64,000 bases of DNA, from positions 2,353 through 66,352 of the IMG/VR virus record IMGVR_UViG_3300036715_000227; one strand, given 5' to 3'. The translations under genes and the position numbers were made by a program. This DNA comes from a virus. How positions within the stretch are numbered: the first letter of the stretch is position 1; each line of letters starts with the position of its first letter. Below the pieces are notes generated by a model. That model did not search any database and was not told where the DNA came from. It saw nothing but the letters and a program-made list of their open reading frames with translations. Below are positions 2,341 through 37,121 of this stretch, one piece after another.

Positions 2341-4512
2341 TTAGTACGGCAACACTTGTACACTATCATACACTCTGTTTCTGTATTCTGCGGGCGTGGC
2401 ACTCTCAGAAAACTCAACAATAGGGCTAACCAATTTAATAGTGTTCACATCAAATTTAGTGAACCTGTTGGACTTTTTATTGTAATCACTTATGAACGGA
2501 TTCGTAAAGTCCACGATCACAGTGGCATCATTGAACCAGAATCCAGCCTTAGGTTGCACTGACTCTCCCTTTTCTAAGTAGGTCAGTACACCATAATAGT
2601 ACGCAGGATCGTCGATTAAATCTATTTCATCAACTACGAATTTGTTAATGATAATATATTTGTCTTTAATAATGTTACCGTGCTCGTCAATAATTGTATC
2701 ATTGACATCTTTATTAAAGAATGATACCGTTAACTTATTCGTGTCCGCCTGTATCAAATCAGGCAAACTAATGGTGTGAGTGCCTTCTTCTAAGGTCGTG
2801 TTGTATATAATGTCGTCATTATATGTTATACGCAAACCAGGGAGATCACCTTTGCTGTGACTTACATTCACTGCTAACTCAACATTAATTGGTTTAGAAG
2901 CTGCTCCTACTTTTTCCATTACTAACCCAAGGAACTCGTCCCAGTGTTCATAGTAATACTCTGATACGTTGACAATGTCTTTGTTATATCCATACTTGGC
3001 AAATATCTCATCGTGCCATTCTTCTGCTTCTGCTGCCTTAGCTGGCACACTAAGGGAAAGAGACTTAGTGTAACCTTCAGACATAATAGGAAGTTTATAC
3101 TCGTGGCAAAGTCTATGAAAGATTGCCCATCTAATATATCTTTCTTTATATGTTAGTGATGGATTCTTGGGCGTCCACCAAATTGACTTTTCTTTCTTAA
3201 TGAGCTCTGACTTGCCTTCGCGGTCATCCCACGCAGGAGTACCTTCGCCTATTTCGAATGTTCGCCCGGGATTAATGGCGTTGAGTACACCTATACGAGC
3301 ATACTTCATTAAGTTGAACGCAAGCACACATGTCTCGATGAAGTTATCCCATTTCTCTGCCCAATGACCCACAATCATTAAAGGAATGAATTTAATTCCA
3401 TTCTTCTCGAAGTGTTCGGCATCCCAATACAATCCTTCAACTACTGTTTTCTTATTCATTGCAAGTAAGACTTCATTACTGCCTGTTTCGACACCAATGG
3501 ACACACTACTAAGTCCGGAACGTCCTAGTAATTCATACAATTCAGGCTTCATTTGCCCAGCTGGCCTACTAATCCATCCAGATGCTGACCAGCGAATCTT
3601 TTTGTCAGGATTGGCATCATTATATTCTGCTAATGCAGCGGCCATCGCTTTGAGGTTTTTAACACTACCGTTAGCCAAGCTGTCAAGGAAATTGAAATGT
3701 CGTATGTTATACTTCTCAGCAAGGAAAACTATTTCACGAACAATGTTATCACCTGTTCTAAACCTGTATTTAAATCCTTGTACCTTGTTTACATCGCAGT
3801 AGTCGCAATTACGAACACAACCCTTGCTACTAAACACAGGAAGTTGCACTGTCCCTTCGTAACCAAACGTAGCATAATCGGCTAAGCGAAAGTCATCGAA
3901 GTTTGAGAATGGGAATTCTTGTTTGTTATAATCAGCATAGAAAAACTTTTGAGATTCCACTGAGCCGTTCTTCAATAATTCAATTAACGGTTCTTCTCCG
4001 TCCCCTGAAATAACCACGTCAACTACTTTGCGTTTCTTCACAAACATATCATAGTTCAGCATCTTTTCAGCCGATGTAACTTTGAACATCTTTTGTGCTA
4101 ATTCAAGAATAGGAATAGGTGCACCGTTCCCGCCCACTACAATGTTAATTTCTGGATTTAATTTTTTGATTCTCTCTGCCAACAAGTAAGTGCCCACATG
4201 AGAGTAAAGCGAGAATACACTAAAGCCAACCCATCGTGGATTCATGTCCACTATGTTCCGGGCCCACAAGTCGAGAAAGTCTGATATTATTTTTGCATTA
4301 TCTTCGCTAATTGGATCTTCTTCGTAGAAGTAATGCTGGAGATCGTTAAACTTTGTTAGATTGTTGTCTACATGTTTATACAATTCCATTCCGACGTCGA
4401 AAGTCTTACATGTCAACCCTTCAGCCTGAATGGCACCTTTCAAAACGGCAAGTGCCAGTGGGGGGTTTTCCAGCTGCGTGAAAGGAACCGAAACCAGTAC
4501 TATGTCGAGCAT
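2341..4512 (-). CDS. cobalamin-binding radical SAM protein
   Basis: PPLALAVLKG..VGFS..IVVGG..GDGE B12-type domain; SKGCVRNCDYC CxxxCxxC. Confidence 0.9.
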   Translation of the reverse strand: MLDIVLVSVPFTQLENPPLALAVLKGAIQAEGLTCKTFDVGMELYKHVDNNLTKFNDLQHYFYEEDPISEDNAKIISDFLDLWARNIVDMNPRWVGFSVFSLYSHVGTYLLAERIKKLNPEINIVVGGNGAPIPILELAQKMFKVTSAEKMLNYDMFVKKRKVVDVVISGDGEEPLIELLKNGSVESQKFFYADYNKQEFPFSNFDDFRLADYATFGYEGTVQLPVFSSKGCVRNCDYCDVNKVQGFKYRFRTGDNIVREIVFLAEKYNIRHFNFLDSLANGSVKNLKAMAAALAEYNDANPDKKIRWSASGWISRPAGQMKPELYELLGRSGLSSVSIGVETGSNEVLLAMNKKTVVEGLYWDAEHFEKNGIKFIPLMIVGHWAEKWDNFIETCVLAFNLMKYARIGVLNAINPGRTFEIGEGTPAWDDREGKSELIKKEKSIWWTPKNPSLTYKERYIRWAIFHRLCHEYKLPIMSEGYTKSLSLSVPAKAAEAEEWHDEIFAKYGYNKDIVNVSEYYYEHWDEFLGLVMEKVGAASKPINVELAVNVSHSKGDLPGLRITYNDDIIYNTTLEEGTHTISLPDLIQADTNKLTVSFFNKDVNDTIIDEHGNIIKDKYIIINKFVVDEIDLIDDPAYYYGVLTYLEKGESVQPKAGFWFNDATVIVDFTNPFISDYNKKSNRFTKFDVNTIKLVSPIVEFSESATPAEYRNRVYDSVQVLPY

Positions 4513-12214: not shown

Positions 12215-12727
12215 ATGCCCAAATATCACAATGAACTCGGCTGGCCAACGCTGCCAGCGGAACTCGAAAAACAAGTACTAGACCTCGTACACATTGCACC
12301 TAACATCTGGCCCACAAAGGCTAGAGAGGGTGATTACTTCCAATACGAAGTCCCTGAAAACATTAAGGAATGGTGCTATACTAATTTGCCCATTTCCCGC
12401 GAATACTGGATTCGTATACACCGCTTCACTAATCACGAAGCAGATGATATACATATCGACCAAAACAGAAGTGACGGATACAATTATCTCGTAACACCTG
12501 CTGGACCAACTACCGAATGGTACTCTGATCGTTTCGGAACAGAAGTACTCGAAAATACTGTGTGCAAACAAAGCACTTGGTACTGGTTTGATGTTTCGAC
12601 TATGCATACTGTACGCGGCATGACCGAAGATCGTATCGCAATAACAACTTTCTTGCCTAAACCTTGGCGTAACTATTCTAACAACGACTTTAGAGTCGAA
12701 GCTGGATTACCTAAGTGGGGCGAATAA
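12215..12727 (+). CDS. cupin/2OG-Fe(II) oxygenase-like protein
   Basis: HxD (IHID)..H (MHTV)..R pattern; T4-type late promoter TATAAATA at 12202. Confidence 0.6.
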   Translation: MPKYHNELGWPTLPAELEKQVLDLVHIAPNIWPTKAREGDYFQYEVPENIKEWCYTNLPISREYWIRIHRFTNHEADDIHIDQNRSDGYNYLVTPAGPTTEWYSDRFGTEVLENTVCKQSTWYWFDVSTMHTVRGMTEDRIAITTFLPKPWRNYSNNDFRVEAGLPKWGE

Positions 12728-12942
12728 GATTTCCGACGTCATAGACAGGGCTTCTACACATTATAGTCCAAGCTGCTTACTATCGTATTGCTTGCATCGG
12801 GAAATTGAATTTGTTTATCGCACATAGTATCCAAGCTATATGCCGATGCATTACTGCACTGCCACACGCATCAGTACGACAGACTGTGCCTTGGTCGACT
12901 AACCTGTCCAGTAGGTATCCGTGTGCTCACATAAACAAAACT

Positions 12943-13040
12943 TGGTGCAGTAATTGGGATTCGAACCCAACTCACATCTGTCATTTCTACAATGGGTAAC
13001 GTTACTTCCCATCGCTATATACCCCTCAGCTAATTACTGC
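12943..13040 (-). ncRNA. tRNA-like RNA with non-canonical anticodon region
   Basis: Perfect acceptor, T arm and CCA; 11-nt loop overlapping palindrome GTAACGTTAC. Confidence 0.6.
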
Positions 13041-13086
13041 CTACTCATATACAGACACAGACTCGTCGCCTAACTTACCGCAAAAC

Positions 13087-13187
13087 TGAATAGTGTGACA
13101 GGATTCTCACCTGCAAACATCCTAGGCGTTAGTTGCATACGCTGGCAACTGTTTCCGCCGGGGTTCTAAATGTTGAACTACACACTA
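13087..13187 (-). ncRNA. tRNA-like RNA with hairpin inserted in the anticodon arm
   Basis: TAGTGTG/CACACTA, GTTC/GAAC D stem, GCAGG-TGAGAAT-CCTGT. Confidence 0.5.
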
Positions 13188-13190
13188 ATA

Positions 13191-13264
13191 TGGAGGCCAG
13201 GGATGGAGTTAAACCACCCTCCCCAGGTTTGCAACCTGATACATAAACGATCTGCCACCTGGCC
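13191..13264 (-). tRNA. tRNA-Cys(GCA)
   Basis: TT-GCA-AA, U73. Confidence 0.85.
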
Positions 13265-13272
13265 ATAAAAAC

Positions 13273-13350
13273 TGGAACACACGATCAGATTTGAACTGAT
13301 GATTTTCTGGGTTTGCAATCCAGTGCGTTGGGCCGCTCCGCCACGTGTGC
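13273..13350 (-). tRNA. tRNA-Cys(GCA)
   Basis: TT-GCA-AA, U73. Confidence 0.88.
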
Positions 13351-13477
13351 ATAAAAATAATTTGTAGTAGGCTGAGACACAACTCAATTAGTTTGCGCTT
13401 CGATATTTAACGACTGCCCTAATACTAAGCATTCCGCAACGCCTTTTATCACCCACCAGGGGATTTACTACAAAACT

Positions 13478-13555
13478 TGGTCTCAGTATAAGGATTCGAA
13501 CCTTAGACCCCTGCGTCCCAAACGCAGTGCTCTAACCAGACTGAGCTACACTGAG
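13478..13555 (-). tRNA. tRNA-Pro(UGG)
   Basis: CTGCG-TTTGGGA-CGCAG. Confidence 0.93.
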
Positions 13556-13562
13556 AAAATAC

Positions 13563-13619
13563 AACAGGATTCGCTTTTTTCATAAACGTTGAAATTTTTG
13601 AATTTGCTGAAAGAATCCT
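13563..13619 (-). ncRNA. CAGCAA-stem RNA, minimal form
   Basis: AGGATTC-TTT-CAGCAA..GAATCCT-GTT. Confidence 0.7.
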
Positions 13620-13625
13620 AAAACT

Positions 13626-13700
13626 TGGCGGGCCGCCTAGGACTCGAACCCAGACCTAACGGATTTGGAATCCGCGATGCTGCCATTACACTAACGACCC
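13626..13700 (-). tRNA. tRNA-Trp(CCA)
   Basis: GCGGA-TTCCAAA-TCCGT. Confidence 0.9.
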
Positions 13701-13708
13701 ACTAAATT

Positions 13709-13783
13709 TGGTGCGACCGGGGAATTCCGACATCCCGACCAAGAGATTATGAGTCTCCTGCTCTTCCTCTGAGCTACAGTCGC
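13709..13783 (-). tRNA. tRNA(CAU), Met or Ile2
   Basis: GGAGA-CTCATAA-TCTCT; odd T loop. Confidence 0.8.
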
Positions 13784-13787
13784 GATA

Positions 13788-13897
13788 CCATATAGAAGTG
13801 CATTTGTTTCCTAGCTTTCGGTAGACATGCCTGTCCTTTCGGGTAGCCCCTGCGTCCAGTTGCTAGGTACCCCAACCGTAAATACACTTCTATATGG
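13788..13897 (-). ncRNA. candidate closed structured RNA (~110 nt)
   Basis: 18-bp terminal stem CCATATAGAAGTG../..CACTTCTATATGG, GAAA/GCAA tetraloops. Confidence 0.55.
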
Positions 13898-13908
13898 CCA
13901 CTGCAAAG

Positions 13909-13982
13909 TGGTAGGACGCCTCGGTACCGACCCGAGTTCTACAGGGTAAAAGCCTGTTGCTTCACTTTAAAGCTTGCATCCC
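13909..13982 (-). tRNA. atypical tRNA-Lys(UUU)
   Basis: ACAGG-CTTTTAC-CCTGT; T loop GTCGGTA; D loop lacks GG. Confidence 0.8.
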
Positions 13983-13987
13983 ATATT

Positions 13988-14063
13988 TGGTCCACTGCCT
14001 CAGAATCGAACTGAGTATCCTCCGGGTAAGAGCCGGCTGCTTCGCCACTAAAGCTTGCAGTGG
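13988..14063 (-). tRNA. tRNA-Lys(CUU)
   Basis: CCGG-CTCTTAC-CCGG, CCA. Confidence 0.85.
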
Positions 14064-14126
14064 TTGGTCACATTTTAATTTTCTTTTATGTGCCAACCAA
14101 GACCAAATATGGGATCTAAGTTGACA

Positions 14127-14153
14127 CTATAGTTTACGAGATTTTCGTTTCAT
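14127..14153 (-). CDS. Lys/Arg-rich leader peptide MKRKSRKL
   Basis: AAGAAGG RBS, ATG AAA CGA AAA TCT CGT AAA CTA TAG, then long hairpin. Confidence 0.6.
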   Translation of the reverse strand: MKRKSRKL

Positions 14154-14258
14154 ATAGTACCTTCTTTCATTAAATTTAAACTAACACATATGACAGGAAT
14201 CGAACCTATCCGCTTTCGGCTTCAAATCCGACTAGCAACACAGTCCAAGTTAATAACT

Positions 14259-14332
14259 TGGAGCGGGGTAGGAGAATCGAACTCCTTTGACTAGCTTGGA
14301 AGGCTAGGACACAACCAATATGCCAACTCCGC
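14259..14332 (-). tRNA. tRNA-Gly(UCC)
   Basis: CTAGC-CTTCCAA-GCTAG. Confidence 0.9.
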
Positions 14333-14339
14333 ATAATAA

Positions 14340-14520
14340 TTGTTTTAAGGCTGAAATCTTGTAACTGTATGTCAGGGTCGACCCTTTACACTTCCCCCGA
14401 AAATTAGGGGCTTGCTTCCATTACAATAATACAAACATCCTTACCACTTGTGCTGCAACACGCATGGACAAGAGCCAAGACTCAGTCTGCTTCAATTTGC
14501 AGATATCAGCCTTAAAACAA
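14340..14520 (-). ncRNA. 181-nt RNA closed by the same 15-bp stem (copy 2)
   Basis: Identical TTGTTTTAAGGCTGA/TCAGCCTTAAAACAA ends, divergent tRNA-like interior. Confidence 0.62.
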
Positions 14521-14527
14521 CTAACAA

Positions 14528-15189
14528 ATATGACCTGCCGCTACGTTGGGACTCTTACCCCAGTTTTTCTCAGCATCCAGTTTCCCTTAGCTGACGCTGT
14601 TTATGGCCTTTTCAGGAACATCACTGCAAAGAGCACTGCGGAAGGATGATGCCCTACTGTTTACTATCTCGGTTAATTACTCCGACTAATTAATTGGGAA
14701 TACACGGCGTTTGAATTGGACTTAACCAATCCCTACTTCTGTCCCTGGCAACATCACCGCCGACATCACTCTTCATACCCTACTGGACCGACTTTGCTCA
14801 TCGTTTGTCACATTGCTGTGAAGACCGGAACATTGTTCCGGTTCGGTTTCGCATCTACTCTCTTACTGGTTGATGTCTTAGTATTAGTCCCGGAGTATAT
14901 TCACATGCACAGAGGACCGGGCTCCATGTGCCGCTATACAACCACAATCACTAAACGCTTGCCGGCGTAAACGACCCCGGGGCGCTGATCGACTGTAAAT
15001 CATATTCAAACACATTAAAAGAAATCTAACACTGCTGTGGCTTAGTACGTCCAGCCAATGCTAAAAGGAATCCAATGCATTTGAATATGACCCCTTATGC
15101 TTCGCAGCATCTTCACGATGTAGCGGACTGTTAAAGCGTATTGCCGCAAACTTGGGCTCAGCACTGTCATCAGCTTAGGGAAATCATAT
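14528..15189 (-). ncRNA. large ornate ncRNA (~660 nt), GOLLD/ROOL-class candidate
   Basis: No credible ORF; long-range pairs ATATGA/TCATAT, TTTCCCTAAGCTGATG/CGTCAGCTAAGGGAAA, CCGCTAC/GTAGCGG; many AGUA motifs. Confidence 0.7.
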
Positions 15190-15339
15190 CTCATTAAATT
15201 TTTAATGAACAAAATGTGTTTCTCGCATTAGGTCATTTCTGCCGTCTGCTACCTTATTGCCCCATCTAGTGGTGTGCAATCAAACACTAAACTCTTGCAG
15301 TTAACTCGATCATTTACTGCTTTATTTAACTTATGTCTT

Positions 15340-15461
15340 ATTATACAATAAGAACAATTACTTAGCAAGTTCTTTTAACATTGTGTCTACCAACTTTCGT
15401 TGCCGTTTCCGTTAACTACTTACTAAGCTTCTATTATACATTAAGATGTATTATTGCGCAA
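15340..15461 (-). promoter_or_regulatory. two tandem sigma70-type promoters
   Basis: TTGCGC-N17-TATAAT and TTGCTA-N17-TATAAT, each with TCTTAWTG before the -10. Confidence 0.7.
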
Positions 15462-15723
15462 CCTTGTTTTGGTCTTTGTGCATCAATGCACCCCACTTTA
15501 GGGTAAACATAAATGTGCTGTCTGTTTCCACAGTGAACACAGCCCATGCCTTCTTAACCTTACCCCAGCGGTAATCATATTCTCGTTCGTATGTGAATGC
15601 GTAAAAATCCGCATCCAACTCTGTTTCCATTGCCCACATCAAGATCTCGTCAACGAATTCCTGGCGTGCATATTTGTGCTCGTCCCTTGTTAGGTAGACG
15701 GGCATTTCGATTCTAACTTTCAT
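15451..15723 (-). CDS. hypothetical protein
   Basis: 90 aa, AAGGAG RBS. Confidence 0.7.
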   Translation of the reverse strand: MKVRIEMPVYLTRDEHKYARQEFVDEILMWAMETELDADFYAFTYEREYDYRWGKVKKAWAVFTVETDSTFMFTLKWGALMHKDQNKVAQ

Positions 15724-15794
15724 TTTGCGCTCCTTTAGTTTGCACTAATGAGTCGCGGTGAAGTGTGGTTGGCAGAACATTTTTGATTCCTAAT

Positions 15795-15848
15795 TGGTGG
15801 TCGGCCCACAGAGTCATGACCTCTGAATGCGCCCGGGCAATACCGACC
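15795..15848 (-). ncRNA. 54-nt mini tRNA-like RNA
   Basis: GGTCGGT/GCCGACC-A-CCA, CAGAG-GTCATGA-CTCTG arm, no anticodon arm. Confidence 0.5.
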
Positions 15849-15854
15849 GTAAAA

Positions 15855-15945
15855 TGGCGGAAGAAGGAGGAATTGAACCCCGACCAGCGTAAGCCAGTCC
15901 CTTGTTTTCCAAACAAGTGCCGAGACCACTCGGTCAACATCTTCC
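15855..15945 (-). tRNA. tRNA-Ser(GGA), possible 8/4 fold
   Basis: CTTGT-TTGGAAA-ACAAG, CCGAG-TGGT-CTCGG D arm. Confidence 0.8.
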
Positions 15946-15951
15946 TAAATT

Positions 15952-16039
15952 TGGCGGGATGTGATGGAGTCGAACCATCACCGCTATTAACAGTGGAACG
16001 GTATTCAAAGCCGCTTAACCTCCAAGGTCTCCACATCCC
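15952..16039 (-). tRNA. tRNA-Ser(UGA), possible 8/4 fold
   Basis: TT-TGA-AT, GGGATGTG/CACATCCC. Confidence 0.82.
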
Positions 16040-16047
16040 ATATTCTT

Positions 16048-16134
16048 TGGCGGATCTTAAAAGAATCGAACTTTCACCGTTTTCACAGTGGGTCGGTATT
16101 CGAAGCCGATTAGCGCCCAGCGCACCTAAGATCC
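16048..16134 (-). tRNA. tRNA-Ser(CGA), possible 8/4 fold
   Basis: TT-CGA-AT, GGATCTTA/TAAGATCC. Confidence 0.82.
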
Positions 16135-16893
16135 TTAAAACTTACGTGCCAGTATATGTGCAGTTTGCAATATACGTGGCGGATATGCGACCTGATTCGG
16201 GGCCGCAAACCAACCAGGATTAAAATCCTGTGTTGTATTAAATTTCTCTATCTTCCATCCCATGTAGTATAACACCGATGTTAACCACGGAACGTTGGGC
16301 ATAGCAACTAATGTCACTGAATCGCCCATATTCTTACTGTTTGAGTTGCCCGAGAAGTTACTCGTTGCACTATTAAAGCGATATTCTAGTGATGGAACAC
16401 CGGTTACTGATGAAACAGTCTCTGTTAAAATCATCTGCTTTATGTCGCTGTTTGATATAACTTCCAACACTGAGATAGGATTTGCAATCTCTCCGAGAAA
16501 CTTGCAAAGCATAACAGTGTCAATACCATGACACTCGTTATACAAGTAATCTTGCTTTTCTGCATCACCAAGTAAAAACTTGTAATTCTTTACACTCAAT
16601 TGATCAAATGCATAGTCTGCTATTGCATTTGGCTCTGGCTTGATGTTTATGCCTGTTACTGATTGTGCACCACGTTGAGCTGCAATGAACGGCATGTATC
16701 CGTGATAAGAACCAACATCTAAAATGTTTTTGTCTTTGATGTAGCTATCATCACTAAACGCAAGCTCGTATCGTTGCCTGTCGGGAGTGATGTAATCTAC
16801 ATTGCGTTGTGGCACATACTCTGCATACGGCACAAGTCCGGTATGCGCGAGATGGTCAAAGTATTGTTTATAATAGTAACTTGGAATTAGCAT
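16135..16893 (-). CDS. class I SAM-dependent methyltransferase
   Basis: ILDVGSYHG..GAQSVTGI motif I/II. Confidence 0.8.
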   Translation of the reverse strand: MLIPSYYYKQYFDHLAHTGLVPYAEYVPQRNVDYITPDRQRYELAFSDDSYIKDKNILDVGSYHGYMPFIAAQRGAQSVTGINIKPEPNAIADYAFDQLSVKNYKFLLGDAEKQDYLYNECHGIDTVMLCKFLGEIANPISVLEVISNSDIKQMILTETVSSVTGVPSLEYRFNSATSNFSGNSNSKNMGDSVTLVAMPNVPWLTSVLYYMGWKIEKFNTTQDFNPGWFAAPNQVAYPPRILQTAHILARKF

Positions 16894-18401
16894 TTTATTA
16901 ACTCAAGTAATTTTGCTTTGTATTCTGCATGGTGATTTGGTTTCAACTCTTGCTGAATTTTACCGAACGGGAAATCATTAAATTTTACTTTACTGATCTC
17001 TTTGTAATCAAATCCATACGATGCCAATTGCATCGTAAAATATGGGTTCATTACTCGTTCAGTTGTTTTCCACATAGAGTCATTGTTGAATATGTCAGCA
17101 AGTTCAATTGCTTTGTCTCTATTCATATCAGCCGAATTCCAGTTAATACTAAATTCATCACTACCAGTACCAATGTCTGTGTAACCAAAGCTTGCGTAAT
17201 CTGCACTGAACTCACTGGTGTAAGTTAACGAGCCCGGTTGCTCGATTGTTAACGGATGCCAGTACCACGAGTCAAGCTTAATTTCATGCGCCACTAATCT
17301 ACGGCTAACTTCAGTGACTTGCTCCACGGATTCACCAGGTAATCCAACGATAAGACTTGCGTGTAATATCATGTCGGGATACTTATCCTTAATGAACGCA
17401 ATCATCTCGATCATCTTGTTGGTGTTATATCCTTTGCCAATAGACTTTGCAGCCGCAGGAGTAAAGGATTCTATACCAAAGTGCAGTCCTCTAATTCCCA
17501 TGTTATACAATATATCAAGGGTCTCGGGTTTAATGCAAATAAGGTCCAATCTATGGTAACCCCAAAGCACAGGCTTAAACGAAAGCTCACTTACAACTTT
17601 CTCGAATGAGCGTAATTTATCTATGTGATCGTTGAATGTGTCATCAACGATAATGTAATTCTTAATACCGAACTTGTCGTAGTTGTATTCAAACTCAGCT
17701 TTGATTAAGTCTGGTCGTTTAACAAAATCTAAATTTTGCTTTCCATTCAATGGGTATGAACAGAACTTACATTTAAAAATACAACCACGACCAACTTCAA
17801 TTGGGATGCACTTATGGTTTACGACATCTATGTCTAACCATTGCATATCTTCGTTAGCGAAATCGTATGACTTGGCATAGCGATCATCAATGATTACCCT
17901 GCCATATAAATTCTTCATTGCGTTTTCTAACTTAGATCCGTTAACCAGATGATTCATTAGATTAACGATACTAACTTCGCTGTAGCCCAACGACACATAG
18001 TCAATGTTTTTGTTGTTGTATTGTGCATTGACTTTAGATCCGCCGACCACGACTTTAACCTTGTCGCTTTTGCTTCTAATGTACTTAATGACAGATTTCT
18101 CAAACTCTTTTCCCTGAGGGAAAATCAGAGTAGTGTCAAGGTCTTTAATTCGCGCCGCCTGCTTATCCACTGCAACTTTGTCCATAACAAATGTAGTAGA
18201 GAACCCTACTAAAAAGGTTTCATCGGTTAGCGCAGTATCTATCAAATTAGTGAGTTCATCATACGACCATTCGGACAAGTGATTAACTACCAAACATGTA
18301 AATCCATTTTTCCGTAACGAATGCGCAAGTTTGTACGGACCAATGGAAGGAATACTTACCAAGTGGTCAGTGACGTCAGAGAAAATGATTGCATTATACA
18401 T
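16887..18401 (-). CDS. cobalamin-binding radical SAM protein
   Basis: VGFSTTF..VVVGG; EVGRGCIFKCKFC; DDTFN; FGIES; IVGLPGE. Confidence 0.9.
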   Translation of the reverse strand: MYNAIIFSDVTDHLVSIPSIGPYKLAHSLRKNGFTCLVVNHLSEWSYDELTNLIDTALTDETFLVGFSTTFVMDKVAVDKQAARIKDLDTTLIFPQGKEFEKSVIKYIRSKSDKVKVVVGGSKVNAQYNNKNIDYVSLGYSEVSIVNLMNHLVNGSKLENAMKNLYGRVIIDDRYAKSYDFANEDMQWLDIDVVNHKCIPIEVGRGCIFKCKFCSYPLNGKQNLDFVKRPDLIKAEFEYNYDKFGIKNYIIVDDTFNDHIDKLRSFEKVVSELSFKPVLWGYHRLDLICIKPETLDILYNMGIRGLHFGIESFTPAAAKSIGKGYNTNKMIEMIAFIKDKYPDMILHASLIVGLPGESVEQVTEVSRRLVAHEIKLDSWYWHPLTIEQPGSLTYTSEFSADYASFGYTDIGTGSDEFSINWNSADMNRDKAIELADIFNNDSMWKTTERVMNPYFTMQLASYGFDYKEISKVKFNDFPFGKIQQELKPNHHAEYKAKLLELIKC

Positions 18402-34495: not shown

Positions 34496-35581
34496 TCAAT
34501 AATGATTTGACGAAAATACTGCAATCCACGGCAAAGGGTCAATGTAATCAGATGCATCGTTCATTCGTTCATCAAGGTCAGCATCAAAGCTTTGCAATGC
34601 TTGCATCATACGTATGGCTAATATTAGAGACATAACCAAATCGTCCGTCTCACCTTCTTTTGCTTCAAATGAATTGCCCTGGGCCACGAATGTTTTAAAC
34701 TCAGAGATCAGCAACTTAGAGGCAATGTGCAACTTCTTCTGTTCAATCATACTCTTTAGCTTTGCACACGCTGCCAACTTGCTCTTGTGCGTTGTATTAA
34801 AGCCCTTTCGTGCACGTTTCTGCCCAGGCTTACTTGGTTCAGTTAAAAATATGCCTCTAAAGTTTTCTTCACCGACTTGAGCAATAGCCATAAGCGCAGC
34901 TTCGCCCAGTGTATTATTTTCTACGCTGTAATAAATCTGGTTCTCTGTATTTGTCGTTTCGTACAAGTATTCAATGATGTCTTTCATAATCTGTACTTGT
35001 CGTTGAATAGGTGTCTTATTGTGATTCCATTCTCCTATTTGCTTTAAGCTTGGTAGCTCGATAATCTGAATAGCAGATGGGTCGCCGCCCGTACCTAACG
35101 ATGGATCTAATGACACTACATAAGTAGAGTGAGCATCTGGCTTCCCGTACCAACGCACAGTGCCTTGTCTCGATACCGGATCAATACCAGCCATCTCAAT
35201 GAGAGTCATCGAATTGATTAGCGTTTCATCATAAATCAAGAACTCGCAATTTTTAATGAGAATCCCATTTGCGTAGAATCTATGATTCTTTTCTACTTCC
35301 AATAAGTCGTACACTGGTTCTATATCGGCGACAGTCACAGATACAATCGTTTCTATTCCGTCATTGACGAATATTTTAGATCGTGGCTTTAATGATTCTG
35401 CTGCAACAATCTCAAATGTAGGCTTGAAGAATTTATGGTCAGGCGTGCATATAATATGTCTTGACTGTGTTTTAAGTAGCAATGTTTGCTTACTTCCCCG
35501 GCGCAGTAGTCCAGCAAAAGTTGACCACCCAGTATCTGTCAATACTTGCAATCCTATATTATTTTTTAATAAATCGTCCAC
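34496..35581 (-). CDS. terminase large subunit C-part: C-intein plus RNase H-like nuclease
   Basis: TPDH block B, VYDL, YANGILIKN|CEF; LDPSLG, VENN, DDLVM; likely GTG start after AAGGA. Confidence 0.88.
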   Translation of the reverse strand: MDDLLKNNIGLQVLTDTGWSTFAGLLRRGSKQTLLLKTQSRHIICTPDHKFFKPTFEIVAAESLKPRSKIFVNDGIETIVSVTVADIEPVYDLLEVEKNHRFYANGILIKNCEFLIYDETLINSMTLIEMAGIDPVSRQGTVRWYGKPDAHSTYVVSLDPSLGTGGDPSAIQIIELPSLKQIGEWNHNKTPIQRQVQIMKDIIEYLYETTNTENQIYYSVENNTLGEAALMAIAQVGEENFRGIFLTEPSKPGQKRARKGFNTTHKSKLAACAKLKSMIEQKKLHIASKLLISEFKTFVAQGNSFEAKEGETDDLVMSLILAIRMMQALQSFDADLDERMNDASDYIDPLPWIAVFSSNHY

Positions 35582-37121
35582 GAACAAATCCTTCTTCTTG
35601 TGTATTTTCTTTAAACTGCTTATTCACTACGCCGTTATTGTACCAAACTAATCCGAGCTTACCAACCTGGTCTTTTTTCAATCTACCTTTATTAAATCCA
35701 ATCGGGCACTCACTAGCGTATGTTTCAATTTGACTATCATTAAACCAACTCAACAAAATTTCTAATTCTCCTATTGTTACCTCGCGTATTTCTCCACTGG
35801 GCCACTTTAGTGTCACTATCGAATTTGCGCCCACACAACCGTGTTCGCGGCGGAAGCGTTCTTCACCGATACGCCCAATTTCCTCTGCCTTCCACACTTC
35901 GTCGCGATCAGGATGTTCGTCCCAGCTTGAGCGATATGCGCGGAATCCATTAGTGCCCAATGGGGTAACATTTCCAAACTCATCAAACGTCTTATTAGCT
36001 TGTTTCCATATTGTCGCAAACTGGTCTTCGTCTGAGTTAGGAGTGGAAGTAATAATAGCTTTACCACCAGTAGACAATGTAGGCGATATGGAAGTCCAAA
36101 ATTCTTTAGCAATGCTTGGTCTAACGAACGCAAACTCGTCACAGTTATGAGTTACTATGTTTCCGTTGACATAAAACTTGTGTGATATATGATCTACTTC
36201 GATAAGGTCATACACTGCACACGCACCTGATTCCCTTATAGTTTCTATCTCTACAGGTCCATCACTGGTATCAATAAAATCACCCACCTTCAGATCTTCT
36301 ACAGATATTTTTTCGTTACGCACGAAGAAAAAGTGCCTATGAGTAGCTTTAACTGATTGTCCGTTAACCAACTTTAATTCATATGTTTGTTTATTTTCTG
36401 CTTTAGTAACACCACGGAATCCGCGCCAGCCGCTCGGAGTGTCAATCAAATAGTTATTGTTTTCAACATAAGCGTCTACAATTTGATCAGGGTTACGAAG
36501 ATTCCAGTATAGTTCTTCTAAGATTACTGTCGATTCCTCGCCTGTTTTTTTGTTCTGCAGTCTTACTGTAGATTCACCGTGTAGGCAATATAGGAGCGAG
36601 ATAGACATACCCCGTCCTGTTGTTTCCGTGGTCGTTTGGGATACAATGCGAGAGCCATTTTCAAAGTCTATCGAGCCTTTGTTGTACGATGTAGCGCCTG
36701 CTCTAATGTGGTCCGGACATAGCTCGTATGCATAGCGAACACGCTGCATAATTTCTTGGGCACCTGTGTACTTGTGAGCCGCAATCAAAATCGTACTATC
36801 TGGCACAAACATTGCGTACCATAATAAATACCCGGCCGCACTGGTAGATTTGCCAGTCTGGCGTGGCATTAGACTGATTGAGAAACGGTAACTGTTGTAC
36901 GTATCGATTAGCTTCTTCTGATAGTCATATGGATGGTACAGCATCTTACCCTTTGTCGGGTGTTGGATATAAAAGAAGTTATCCATAAAGTATTGTGGCC
37001 CTGTTACAGGATCGGAACACAAGGCGAACTCTTGAATCTGCTGAGGAGTCCATAGTACGGATTTGTACGGTGTTTTAACAATAGCTTGTGGGTCTATTGG
37101 TTTTTTGGGTATATTGCTCAT
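35559..37121 (-). CDS. terminase large subunit N-part (ATPase) with mini-intein and N-intein
   Basis: PRQTGKS Walker A; intein CLHG..THN (36587-36144) in Walker B; EHG|CVGANS N-intein. Confidence 0.92.
   Translation of the reverse strand: MSNIPKKPIDPQAIVKTPYKSVLWTPQQIQEFALCSDPVTGPQYFMDNFFYIQHPTKGKMLYHPYDYQKKLIDTYNSYRFSISLMPRQTGKSTSAAGYLLWYAMFVPDSTILIAAHKYTGAQEIMQRVRYAYELCPDHIRAGATSYNKGSIDFENGSRIVSQTTTETTGRGMSISLLYCLHGESTVRLQNKKTGEESTVILEELYWNLRNPDQIVDAYVENNNYLIDTPSGWRGFRGVTKAENKQTYELKLVNGQSVKATHRHFFFVRNEKISVEDLKVGDFIDTSDGPVEIETIRESGACAVYDLIEVDHISHKFYVNGNIVTHNCDEFAFVRPSIAKEFWTSISPTLSTGGKAIITSTPNSDEDQFATIWKQANKTFDEFGNVTPLGTNGFRAYRSSWDEHPDRDEVWKAEEIGRIGEERFRREHGCVGANSIVTLKWPSGEIREVTIGELEILLSWFNDSQIETYASECPIGFNKGRLKKDQVGKLGLVWYNNGVVNKQFKENTQEEGFVRGRFIKK

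Follow-up and report, generated by a model that had tools for sequence, protein, structure and literature searches.

Why should a ribosome-binding site and an open reading frame (ORF) of eight codons, three of them for lysine, stand directly before two tandem lysine tRNA genes, and why should the RNA behind this frame carry an exact complement of the junction between those two tRNAs? The question is raised by a cassette in the 64-kb stretch of phage DNA analyzed here (hereafter the window, meaning that whole stretch), which is part of the 66,352-base viral record IMGVR_UViG_3300036715_000227, with a completeness estimate of 19%. The original prediction, made from the sequence of the window, interpreted this arrangement as translation-controlled maturation of the two tRNAs, and the computational analysis reported below partly supports that interpretation. 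In the reading that we favor, to which we assign a probability of roughly 0.55, a ribosome at the stop codon of the short frame would melt the hairpin that follows and lock the ends of both tRNAs in alternative helices, and a ribosome stalled at a lysine AAA codon would leave the tRNAs free to mature.

All coordinates of the cassette refer to the minus strand, on which no ORF of 80 or more amino acids occurs between 12727 and 15451. A Shine-Dalgarno (SD)-like AAGAAGG (14160-14166) lies 6 nt before the ATG (14153-14151) of the mini-ORF at 14127-14153, which reads ATG AAA CGA AAA TCT CGT AAA CTA TAG, ends with TAG at 14129-14127 and would encode MKRKSRKL, with AAA at codons 2, 4 and 7 of its eight codons. 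The predicted ribosome-binding site and lysine-containing frame ahead of the lysine tRNAs are thus present, one base above a literal reading of the original claim. The stop codon overlaps a hairpin, as had also been proposed, and the overlap is exact, the G of TAG being the first paired base. Segment A, the 5' strand of this leader hairpin, occupies 14113-14127 and was defined by pair counts and RNAalifold; it pairs over 15 positions, with one T-T mismatch, to the 3' strand, segment C (14090-14104; pair counts and folds), across a loop at 14105-14112. The top of the hairpin and the loop together form segment B (14101-14115), the anti-junction stretch.

About 62 nt beyond the stop codon begins the first tRNA, tRNA-Lys(CUU), at 13988-14063 (called by ARAGORN; 27.6 bits with Rfam, below the cut-off of 29), and it is followed by tRNA-Lys(UUU) at 13909-13982 (Rfam 38.0 bits over 13912-13982; no ARAGORN call). 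Two segments at the tRNA ends complete the set of pairing partners. Segment D, CCAACCA (14061-14067), consists of the four bases before tRNA-Lys(CUU) and its first three, and can pair with C in place of A. Segment E (13978-13992) consists of GACCA from the end of tRNA-Lys(CUU), the spacer AATAT and GGGAT from the start of tRNA-Lys(UUU), and pairs with B. The claimed 15-nt complement of the tRNA junction is real: the 15-mer at 14115-14101 is the exact reverse complement of 13992-13978. With two mismatches allowed it has only two matches in the 64 kb (chance 0.09), and none of 100 shuffles gave two; the complementarity between leader and junction reaches 20 nt at 90%. The long-range duplex between leader and junction is part of the minimum-energy fold of the 281-nt cassette RNA, whose -92.0 kcal/mol compares with -70.5 +/- 4.5 kcal/mol for its shuffles (z -4.83; none of 200 as good).

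Not every pairing of the window belongs to this core. A small hairpin between C and D, H2 (14069-14092), is formed in the folds by CACAT (14092-14088), an A-rich loop and ATGTG (14073-14069); it fits both of the states described below and extends the C:D helix, and relatives carry stems that differ yet remain complementary (CGTAAA/TTTACG, ATTAAA/TTTAAT), as read off the alignment by eye. The original prediction had the hairpin loop pair with the downstream AAATGTG, a pairing that is not conserved; AAATGTG is better read as the 3' strand of H2. The proposed complement in the trailer CTTTGCAGTGG (13898-13908) is not conserved either. The trailer is specific to the window, and its complementarity to the 5' strand of tRNA-Lys(CUU) runs to 9 nt there, with a longest run of 2-5 nt in 82 relatives; it is probably no part of the switch and may be a duplication remnant, because it resembles the 3' end of tRNA-Lys(CUU) followed by CCATAT. 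The window's minimum-energy fold also pairs the start-codon region with strand A, making a possible hairpin around the whole ORF; strand A is invariant and so shows no covariation here, and one relative (G003) breaks the pairing. Programmed frameshifting was considered and ruled out, there being no slippery heptamer before the hairpin.

Is the arrangement a peculiarity of one genome? The window encodes a tail sheath, a T4-type terminase and further phage genes, and its sheath is about 44% identical to those of the Pseudomonas PA5oct-like and Agrobacterium Atu_ph07 jumbo phages. Relatives were sought independently of the leader, through homology of the tail sheath, which gave 79 loci; 26 of these records were then searched with the DNA of the region. 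Three of the 26 carry a homologue, all with a mini-ORF: two nearly complete genomes (320 and 354 kb) match at 78% over a span that opens shortly ahead of the stop codon and closes where tRNA-Lys(UUU) begins, and one 62-kb fragment matches at 70%. The remaining 23, mostly short fragments, have no match to the region. The three mini-ORFs encode MKRSGKR, MKRSGKR and MKRGKR, and in each the TAG abuts the hairpin, which is followed by tRNA-Lys(CUU) and then tRNA-Lys(UUU).

Viral contigs were then scanned with three patterns that differ in the parts of the motif they force. The first, built from the three versions of the leader with the ORF start forced, found at least 120 loci; the second, forcing only TAG, the hairpin and the stretch after it, found at least 116; the third forced nothing upstream of the hairpin loop and found at least 120. 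Together the viral contigs yield at least 137 unique leader variants, 125 of the long form seen in the window and 12 of a short form described below. A tRNA-Lys follows 97 of the 116 matches listed in the second scan, the other 19 being mostly chance matches in coding sequence along with two truncated true loci. In the third scan it follows 116 of the 120 matches listed, with 100 unique true leaders; here the first tRNA is tRNA-Lys(CUU) in 114 and tRNA-Lys(UUU) in 2, and of the 4 matches with none, 3 are chance hits. Among contigs from bacterial genomes the first pattern gave 12 matches, 4 true cassettes and 8 chance occurrences; the 4 cassettes lie on metagenome-bin contigs and are probably phage DNA.

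Other searches returned little. When the window region and three leader subtypes were compared by blastn with 50,697 GenBank phage records, tRNA bodies alone were recovered (for the window region, among the best 20 of 56 matching records); at this sensitivity the cassette was not found in any cultured phage. Neither the junction nor the anticodon arm of tRNA-Lys(CUU), searched as exact 18- and 19-nt strings, had a match in viral contigs, and a search with the neighboring radical-SAM protein found no related loci. Upstream of the cassette the neighbors vary, being other tRNAs (Cys, Gln, Arg, Ile, Phe and others) or unrelated ORFs. The cassette is a self-contained module of giant phages, set among variable neighbors. 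At two loci of nearly complete relatives (L082, ~910-1473, and L081; genomes G002 and G003) a release-factor-like gene lies directly upstream of the lysine leader, and another stands at the end of locus L203; it has a GGQ motif (GAGGQHRNK) and a C-terminal region like that of class-I release factors. As a functional partner of the cassette this gene was dropped, since it is upstream in only 2 of 30 cases with an upstream ORF.

What is conserved in the mini-ORF across these relatives is its frame. In the first scan the distance from ATGAAACG to TAG is 10, 13, 16 or 19 nt and thus in frame in all 124 matches listed, which encode 22 distinct peptides. In the second scan, an in-frame ATG is present in 96 of the 96 evaluable tRNA-Lys-linked leaders listed. 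In the third, all 100 unique leaders contain TAGTGTC, with the TAG at the hairpin base, and an in-frame ATG, preceded at 4-15 nt by an SD-type motif in 98 of them (the consensus over the alignment is AAAGGAG). The same scan shows ORFs of 6-9 codons in 97 of 98 leaders, the sole exception arising from the choice of a more distant ATG. Among the bacterial contigs the frame is kept in 4 of 4 true cassettes versus 0 of 8 chance matches.

Within this frame, conservation is concentrated on lysine codons. Conserved lysine codons in relatives had been set as a test of the original prediction, and AAA occupies the position two codons before the stop in 98 of 98 leaders of the third scan. At codon 2, 95 of these 98 have AAA and 2 have AAG; counted over all their mini-ORFs, there are 199 AAA and 3 AAG codons. 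The last sense codon, by comparison, takes 12 different forms, and the leaders encode 30 distinct peptides. Judged by these constraints, the mini-ORF behaves like a translated unit in which length, stop position and two lysine codons appear to matter and the peptide otherwise does not.

The covariation of the RNA helices was examined in 90 unique sequences by counting pairs in ungapped registers anchored on invariant bases; these were used because the MAFFT alignment is out of register at the loop and the junction. The antisense stretch was expected to covary with the tRNA junction, and it does: B:E is canonical at 84% over 18 positions, compared with 44-49% when the strands are slid against each other, and spacer positions show up to six pair types. 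A:C is canonical at 86% over 16 positions (28-48% slid), with compensatory pair types at k = 6, 8 and 11-14, and C:D at 70% (28-42% slid), the positions from j = -4 to +2 being canonical in 67-90 of the 90. The same can be read by eye in the three sheath-linked relatives, in which strand A changes from CAAC to CATC together with a change from GTTG to GATG in C and from CAAC to CATC before tRNA-Lys(CUU), and in which the loop tracks a spacer of TAT or TAC in place of the window's AATAT. Within B:E, UGGUC:GACCA is invariant or nearly so (k = -3 to 1 canonical in 85-90 of 90) and forms part of the longer duplex within the precursor.

Duplex energies point the same way. Cognate duplexes of leader and junction average -26.6 kcal/mol, compared with -21.0 kcal/mol for non-cognate combinations, and none of 2000 permutations was as low. 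Duplexes computed for the opposite strand average -21.9 kcal/mol; those in RNA sense hold 131 G-U pairs, and it is through these that they are the stronger, which indicates selection on the RNA of tRNA sense. Among 71 distinct haplotype pairs of leader and junction, 54 have an ungapped run of at least 12 pairs and 67 reach -18 kcal/mol or lower. Co-changes were also counted on phylogenetically independent sequence pairs of a maximum-likelihood tree of the region: they amount to 7 of 7 at A:C k = 6, 6.7 of 7 at C:D j = -1, and 7.3 of 9, 6.1 of 8, 7.8 of 10 and 5.1 of 8 at B:E k = 2, 3, 5 and 6, respectively, with opposite-direction changes of at most 1.2 at any position. RNAalifold, run on a MAFFT alignment of 80 sequences, recovers A:C and the cloverleaf of tRNA-Lys(CUU) with double changes in 17 of 32 pairs.

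These three helices define two states that exclude each other, because C cannot pair with A and D together and because a loop closed by A:C blocks the 15-bp B:E. In constrained folds of 83 sequences, state 1 (A:C with both acceptor stems) has a mean energy of -70.9 kcal/mol and state 2 (B:E with C:D) one of -71.9 kcal/mol, state 2 being the lower in 49 of the 83. Folding of the alternative conformers, suggested with the original prediction, thus yields two exclusive states of nearly equal mean energy. Staged folds of 90 sequences place the two states along the growing transcript. A:C is the minimum-energy fold in 90 of 90 once C exists and in 82-84 until most of tRNA-Lys(CUU) is made; with the junction in place, 87 of 90 minimum-energy folds contain C:D, B:E or both. 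Masking strand A, to mimic a ribosome whose A site holds TAG, lets C:D form in 80 of the 90 once D exists.

The two tRNAs had been described as atypical, which holds family-wide for tRNA-Lys(CUU); the odd features of tRNA-Lys(UUU) belong to a subtype found in the window and a few relatives. All 90 sequences of the cassette tRNA-Lys(CUU) have a C1:G72 end pair, and in 80 aligned sequences the 3' end GGACCA and the CUU anticodon loop are invariant and all four stems covary strongly. The Rfam tRNA model gives no match to the homologous tRNA-Lys(CUU) genes of loci L082 and L101. The bodies of this first tRNA fall into several unrelated sequence types, swapped among similar leaders, that all begin with CC and end with GGACCA; it is precisely these conserved ends that the leader pairs with. 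ARAGORN calls tRNA-Lys(CUU) followed by tRNA-Lys(UUU) in 81 of 108 unique relatives. The second tRNA, tRNA-Lys(UUU), is the reader of the AAA codons of the mini-ORF.

Transfer RNAs nearly always have U8, and bases 8-9 of the window's tRNA-Lys(CUU) are AA. The tRNA-Lys(UUU) subtype, present in the window and at loci L181, L197, L205 and L130, has a non-canonical T loop (GTCGGTA in the window) and a D loop without the usual GG, and ARAGORN misses it in the window and several relatives.

A natural variant of the cassette shows which pairing partner is constant. In the short form, represented by 12 unique leaders, tRNA-Lys(CUU) is absent and the leader runs straight into tRNA-Lys(UUU); the hairpin top then finds its complement in the 5' flank of tRNA-Lys(UUU) and in that gene's first 5-7 bases, and the sequences' own duplexes average -21.4 kcal/mol, compared with -11.4 kcal/mol for non-cognate ones (12 sequences). 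There is also a long-form variant in which the first tRNA has shrunk to a mini-hairpin and the pairing with the leader is retained. From the short form it follows that the leader's constant partner is the 5' acceptor strand of the AAA-reading tRNA. The lysine codon near the stop differs as well: two codons before the stop stands AAA in 125 of 125 long forms, and of the 12 short forms 6 have AAG there (from at least three sequence types; for example L105, L113, L143, L153 and L267). This synonymous choice between AAA and AAG tracks the tRNA content of the cassette and is hard to attribute to RNA structure alone.

How might such a cassette work? In state 1, A:C would be closed and both tRNAs would fold into cloverleaves. 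In state 2, C would pair across the 5' boundary of tRNA-Lys(CUU), with bases on either side of it, and B would pair with the 3' end of that tRNA, the spacer and 5-6 bases at the start of tRNA-Lys(UUU); neither acceptor stem could then form, and the sites of RNase P would lie inside helices, so that this state is expected to block maturation. Since A:C starts pairing at the G of TAG, a terminating ribosome must open strand A, and one that gets as far as the stop codon would thereby direct the nascent transcript into state 2. A ribosome held up for Lys-tRNA at AAA, either in codon 2 or two codons ahead of TAG, would halt short of the hairpin and keep state 1; with no ribosome on the mini-ORF, state 1 would likewise prevail and the tRNAs would mature. 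Slow decoding of AAA would thus yield more mature tRNA-Lys and fast decoding less, a negative feedback by tRNA-Lys(UUU), and anything that destroys tRNA-Lys(UUU) would induce the cassette.

Counted from the first base of the P site, mRNA is unwound by the ribosome about 11-13 nt downstream. At this distance, AAA in the A site would place the hairpin base at +12, still intact, and after two further translocations, when TAG occupies the A site, the ribosome would enclose the six invariant pairs GTGTCA:TGGCAC. The fixed gap of one codon between AAA and TAG (98 of 98) fits this unwinding geometry, as does the proposal in the original prediction that a ribosome at the stop opens the hairpin, the hairpin base lying within the stop codon. 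A more specific formulation is that the tRNA-Lys(UUU) gene senses the decoding of its own AAA codon and, together with tRNA-Lys(CUU), leaves the cis-antisense lock only when lysine decoding fails; this we put forward tentatively, at somewhat less than even odds.

Could the pairings instead serve as a constitutive aid to folding or processing, B:E and C:D being a transient leader-trailer scaffold by which nothing is sensed? Such a scaffold might order or assist the cleavage of the two closely spaced tRNAs or prevent mispairing between two such similar sequences, and the mini-ORF would only bring the ribosome that opens the hairpin. B:E does enclose tRNA-Lys(CUU) in the manner of a processing stem, other long closing stems starting from tRNA CCA ends occur nearby and in relatives, and an atypical tRNA might need help in folding. 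Yet the duplex holds 5 nt of the mature first tRNA and 5-6 nt of the mature second, so that cutting within it would damage both, and it removes both acceptor stems, which RNase P needs. A scaffold also leaves unexplained the invariant spacing between AAA and stop (98 of 98), the shift between AAA and AAG, and a covarying A:C helix that excludes the scaffold, and we consider it unlikely. We regard as slightly less likely again a switch that reads general capacity for translation or termination, such as ribosome traffic or the RF1-specific dwell at TAG, in place of lysine. TAG is invariant (100 of 100), the ORF is very short and strongly initiated, its last codon and most of its peptide vary, and arginine codons are nearly as common as lysine codons, all of which a general sensor would accommodate. 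But the invariance of TAG may be structural, because its G is also a paired base; the association is exclusive to tRNA-Lys (114 CUU, 2 UUU and 4 without, 3 of them chance, among the 120 matches listed); AAA is fixed two codons ahead of the stop, with variable codons around it; and the release-factor-like gene is upstream in only 2 of 30 cases.

Competing hairpins behind a leader peptide that carries cognate codons also recall the logic of classical attenuators; on that model the folds would decide whether the polymerase enters the tRNA genes, by hairpin- or Rho-dependent termination or pausing, and an untranslated leader could expose loading sites for Rho. The terminator scan found no hairpin with a U tract at 14064-14130 on the minus strand, that is, between the stop codon and tRNA-Lys(CUU), which makes intrinsic termination an unlikely output; the sequence behind A:C is rich in A, and C:D leads directly into the tRNA. 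Control of transcription further fails to explain selection on a junction 80-110 nt further on, or on the first bases of tRNA-Lys(UUU), and we think it improbable. Farther still from the evidence is the idea that the cassette has no function, the complementarity being a relic of duplication, inversion or recombination or a repeat at the DNA level, and the mini-ORF a chance frame or the stump of a decayed gene. Transfer RNA arrays do recombine, the bodies of the first tRNA are swapped among similar leaders, and the trailer looks like a duplication remnant. The complementarity nonetheless survives changes in the length and sequence of the spacer over 71 haplotype pairs, pairs co-change on the tree, the duplex is stronger in RNA sense (-26.6 versus -21.9 kcal/mol), and frame, TAG and AAA are kept across 100 unique variants (SD 98 of 100, AAA 98 of 98). 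Thirty distinct peptides and 71 haplotype pairs speak against near-clonal copies, and this explanation is close to refuted.

The favored reading, in which translation of the leader controls tRNA maturation, has to be weighed against several observations that count against it. Every scan forced part of the motif, so divergent or ORF-less relatives could be missed, and the invariance of TAG is a result of the third scan only. B:E is imperfect, with no ungapped run of 12 in 17 of the 71 haplotype pairs and a duplex weaker than -18 kcal/mol in 4 of them, and two of the 12 short-form leaders pair weakly (-12.2 and -12.7 kcal/mol), one of them without a short ORF. Tree tests are non-significant at C:D j = +2, at A:C k = 8, 11 and 12 and at B:E k = 4 and 7-10, several of which vary too little; as the tree comes from the same short, recombining region, we take the co-change figures as supportive, not decisive. 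The energy difference between the two states scatters (standard deviation 6.4 kcal/mol), and at locus L101 state 2 is 17.7 kcal/mol worse than state 1; the energy model leaves out tertiary structure and modifications of the tRNAs, and state 2 would have to last long enough beyond the completion of tRNA-Lys(UUU) to have an effect. As for the signal, AAA is common as second codon of well-initiated genes, arginine makes up 28% of mini-ORF codons, and basic residues are also a generic feature of well-translated short frames. The case for lysine as the signal is for this reason carried mainly by the AAA two codons before the stop and by the link to tRNA-Lys. Finally, a scan of the window found six candidate mini-ORF leaders with SD motifs before tRNAs, and the lysine leader alone has the cassette layout.

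The cassette can be compared with several known kinds of control. Leader peptides operate transcription attenuators at trpL, hisL, leuL, thrL, pheL and pheM of pheST, for several of which Rfam holds models. Like these, the cassette has a short, well-initiated ORF with cognate codons, a ribosome position that would pick between exclusive helices, with the end of the leader ORF reaching into one of them, and a logic of negative feedback by the supply of charged tRNA. Unlike them, it lacks a terminator hairpin and U tract, has tRNAs and not proteins as its product, would use a cis-antisense lock on tRNA ends as its 'off' fold, and has 2-3 control codons at fixed positions where attenuators have a codon run. 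No Rfam leader family matched, either with cmscan at E up to 1 over 12500-16500 or at gathering scores over the whole window, the only matches near the region being of tRNA type; loci L082 and L101 gave no Rfam leader or T-box match. The translational attenuation of ermC and cat exposes the SD motif and start of a downstream ORF, with stalling that requires the drug and a specific nascent peptide. There too the position of a ribosome on a short ORF remodels a downstream hairpin after transcription and without termination, but here tRNA genes and no ORF lie downstream, and the peptide is poorly conserved (30 distinct forms).

T-boxes bind mature tRNA in trans, with a specifier that reads the anticodon and without a ribosome, and control synthetase and amino-acid genes. 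The cassette resembles a T-box (RF00230) in being a cis leader tied to one tRNA species and perhaps in a UGGN:NCCA-like pairing, here UGGUC:GACCA; it differs in that the leader pairs in cis with its own precursor, over a stretch that continues through the spacer into the following tRNA, that no Rfam T-box matches, and that the leader from stop codon to tRNA-Lys(CUU) is only about 62 nt long. The RNase III leader-trailer stems of rRNA and some tRNA precursors are likewise long flanking duplexes that enclose an RNA, as the 15-bp B:E encloses tRNA-Lys(CUU), but the cassette duplex takes up mature tRNA ends and rivals a covarying hairpin tied to an ORF. As in phages with counter-defense tRNA-Lys genes, the tRNA-Lys is encoded by the phage itself, and defenses repeatedly target tRNA-Lys(UUU).

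Transfer RNA genes are generally treated as controlled by promoters and constitutive processing, and to our knowledge there is no case of a translated leader that decides the folding of a tRNA precursor. No leader peptide or mini-ORF controlling tRNA genes was found in the open-access and bioRxiv literature, as far as its text was accessible, or in Rfam 15. The cassette is best filed as a variant of ribosome-mediated attenuation with tRNA maturation as its proposed output.

The surroundings of the cassette contain further features. The first 23 kb of the window form a tRNA array with 48 ARAGORN genes, all on the minus strand; a scan of the whole window at Rfam gathering scores gave 43 tRNA matches and no other family. 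On the minus strand directly after tRNA-Lys(UUU), at 13788-13897, lies a closing stem with 18-nt arms that are 94% complementary and enclose 74 nt. The stem recurs at L082 (1723-1850), L081 and many further cassette loci; in relatives its 5' arm begins at the CCA end of tRNA-Lys(UUU) (CCATAT...ATATGG), and it is kept while its interior varies widely, some interiors having a T-arm-like hairpin; there is no Rfam match. A contig from an RNA library (run X21, record 5) matches 13806-13915 with three differences and then diverges. The stretch was found mainly in DNA sequencing runs; the assembled contigs of four RNA-library runs cover only tRNA-like parts and 13806-13915, not the leader, and have no bearing on transcription.

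A tRNA with anticodon CAU and an unusual T loop, missed by ARAGORN, scores 48.1 bits with Rfam at 13712-13783 (minus). Between tRNA-Gly(UCC) and the lysine leader, at about 14185-14250 (minus), a tRNA-like remnant called by neither ARAGORN nor Rfam retains a good T arm (GATAGG TTCGATT CCTGTC), which surfaced in the terminator scan. Two more long inverted repeats, at 14337-14523 (23-nt arms around 141 nt) and 15000-15090 (17-nt arms around 57 nt), lie together with the stretch 14530-15440 in about 1.1 kb with no tRNA, no Rfam match and, on either strand, no ORF of 80 or more amino acids except one at 14716-14970 (plus strand); these may be unknown structured RNAs inside the tRNA array. Within the array, at 16135-18401 and 2341-4512 (minus), are two radical-SAM proteins (504 and 723 amino acids, the larger with a weak B12-binding match) and a methyltransferase, all of which may be tRNA-modifying enzymes. 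The large terminase subunit (Terminase_6N; 35559-37121, minus) may carry an intein, its match to an intein-splicing domain reaching 25.9 bits, below the cut-off of 35.8.

What would such a cassette do for the phage? In the available text of two reports, tRNA-Lys is a target of phage defense and phage tRNA-Lys a counter-measure: PrrC acts against T4 (PMC10264068), T5 tRNA-Lys counters PARIS (PMC11464382), and counter-defense tRNA-Lys is described there as constitutive genes with resistant anticodon arms and no sensing leader (PMC11464382, PMC10264068). A tie between the cassette and anticodon nucleases, or defense in general, is speculation. If it were true, the cassette would provide an inducible replacement tRNA-Lys, triggered by the very damage that tRNA-Lys-cleaving defenses such as PrrC or PARIS inflict. 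The favored reading bears on how phages use and regulate their tRNA arrays against tRNA-targeting defenses and, if correct, would extend attenuation to tRNA maturation and make this self-contained module of about 250 nt, found among variable neighbors, a compact natural sensor of single-codon decoding.

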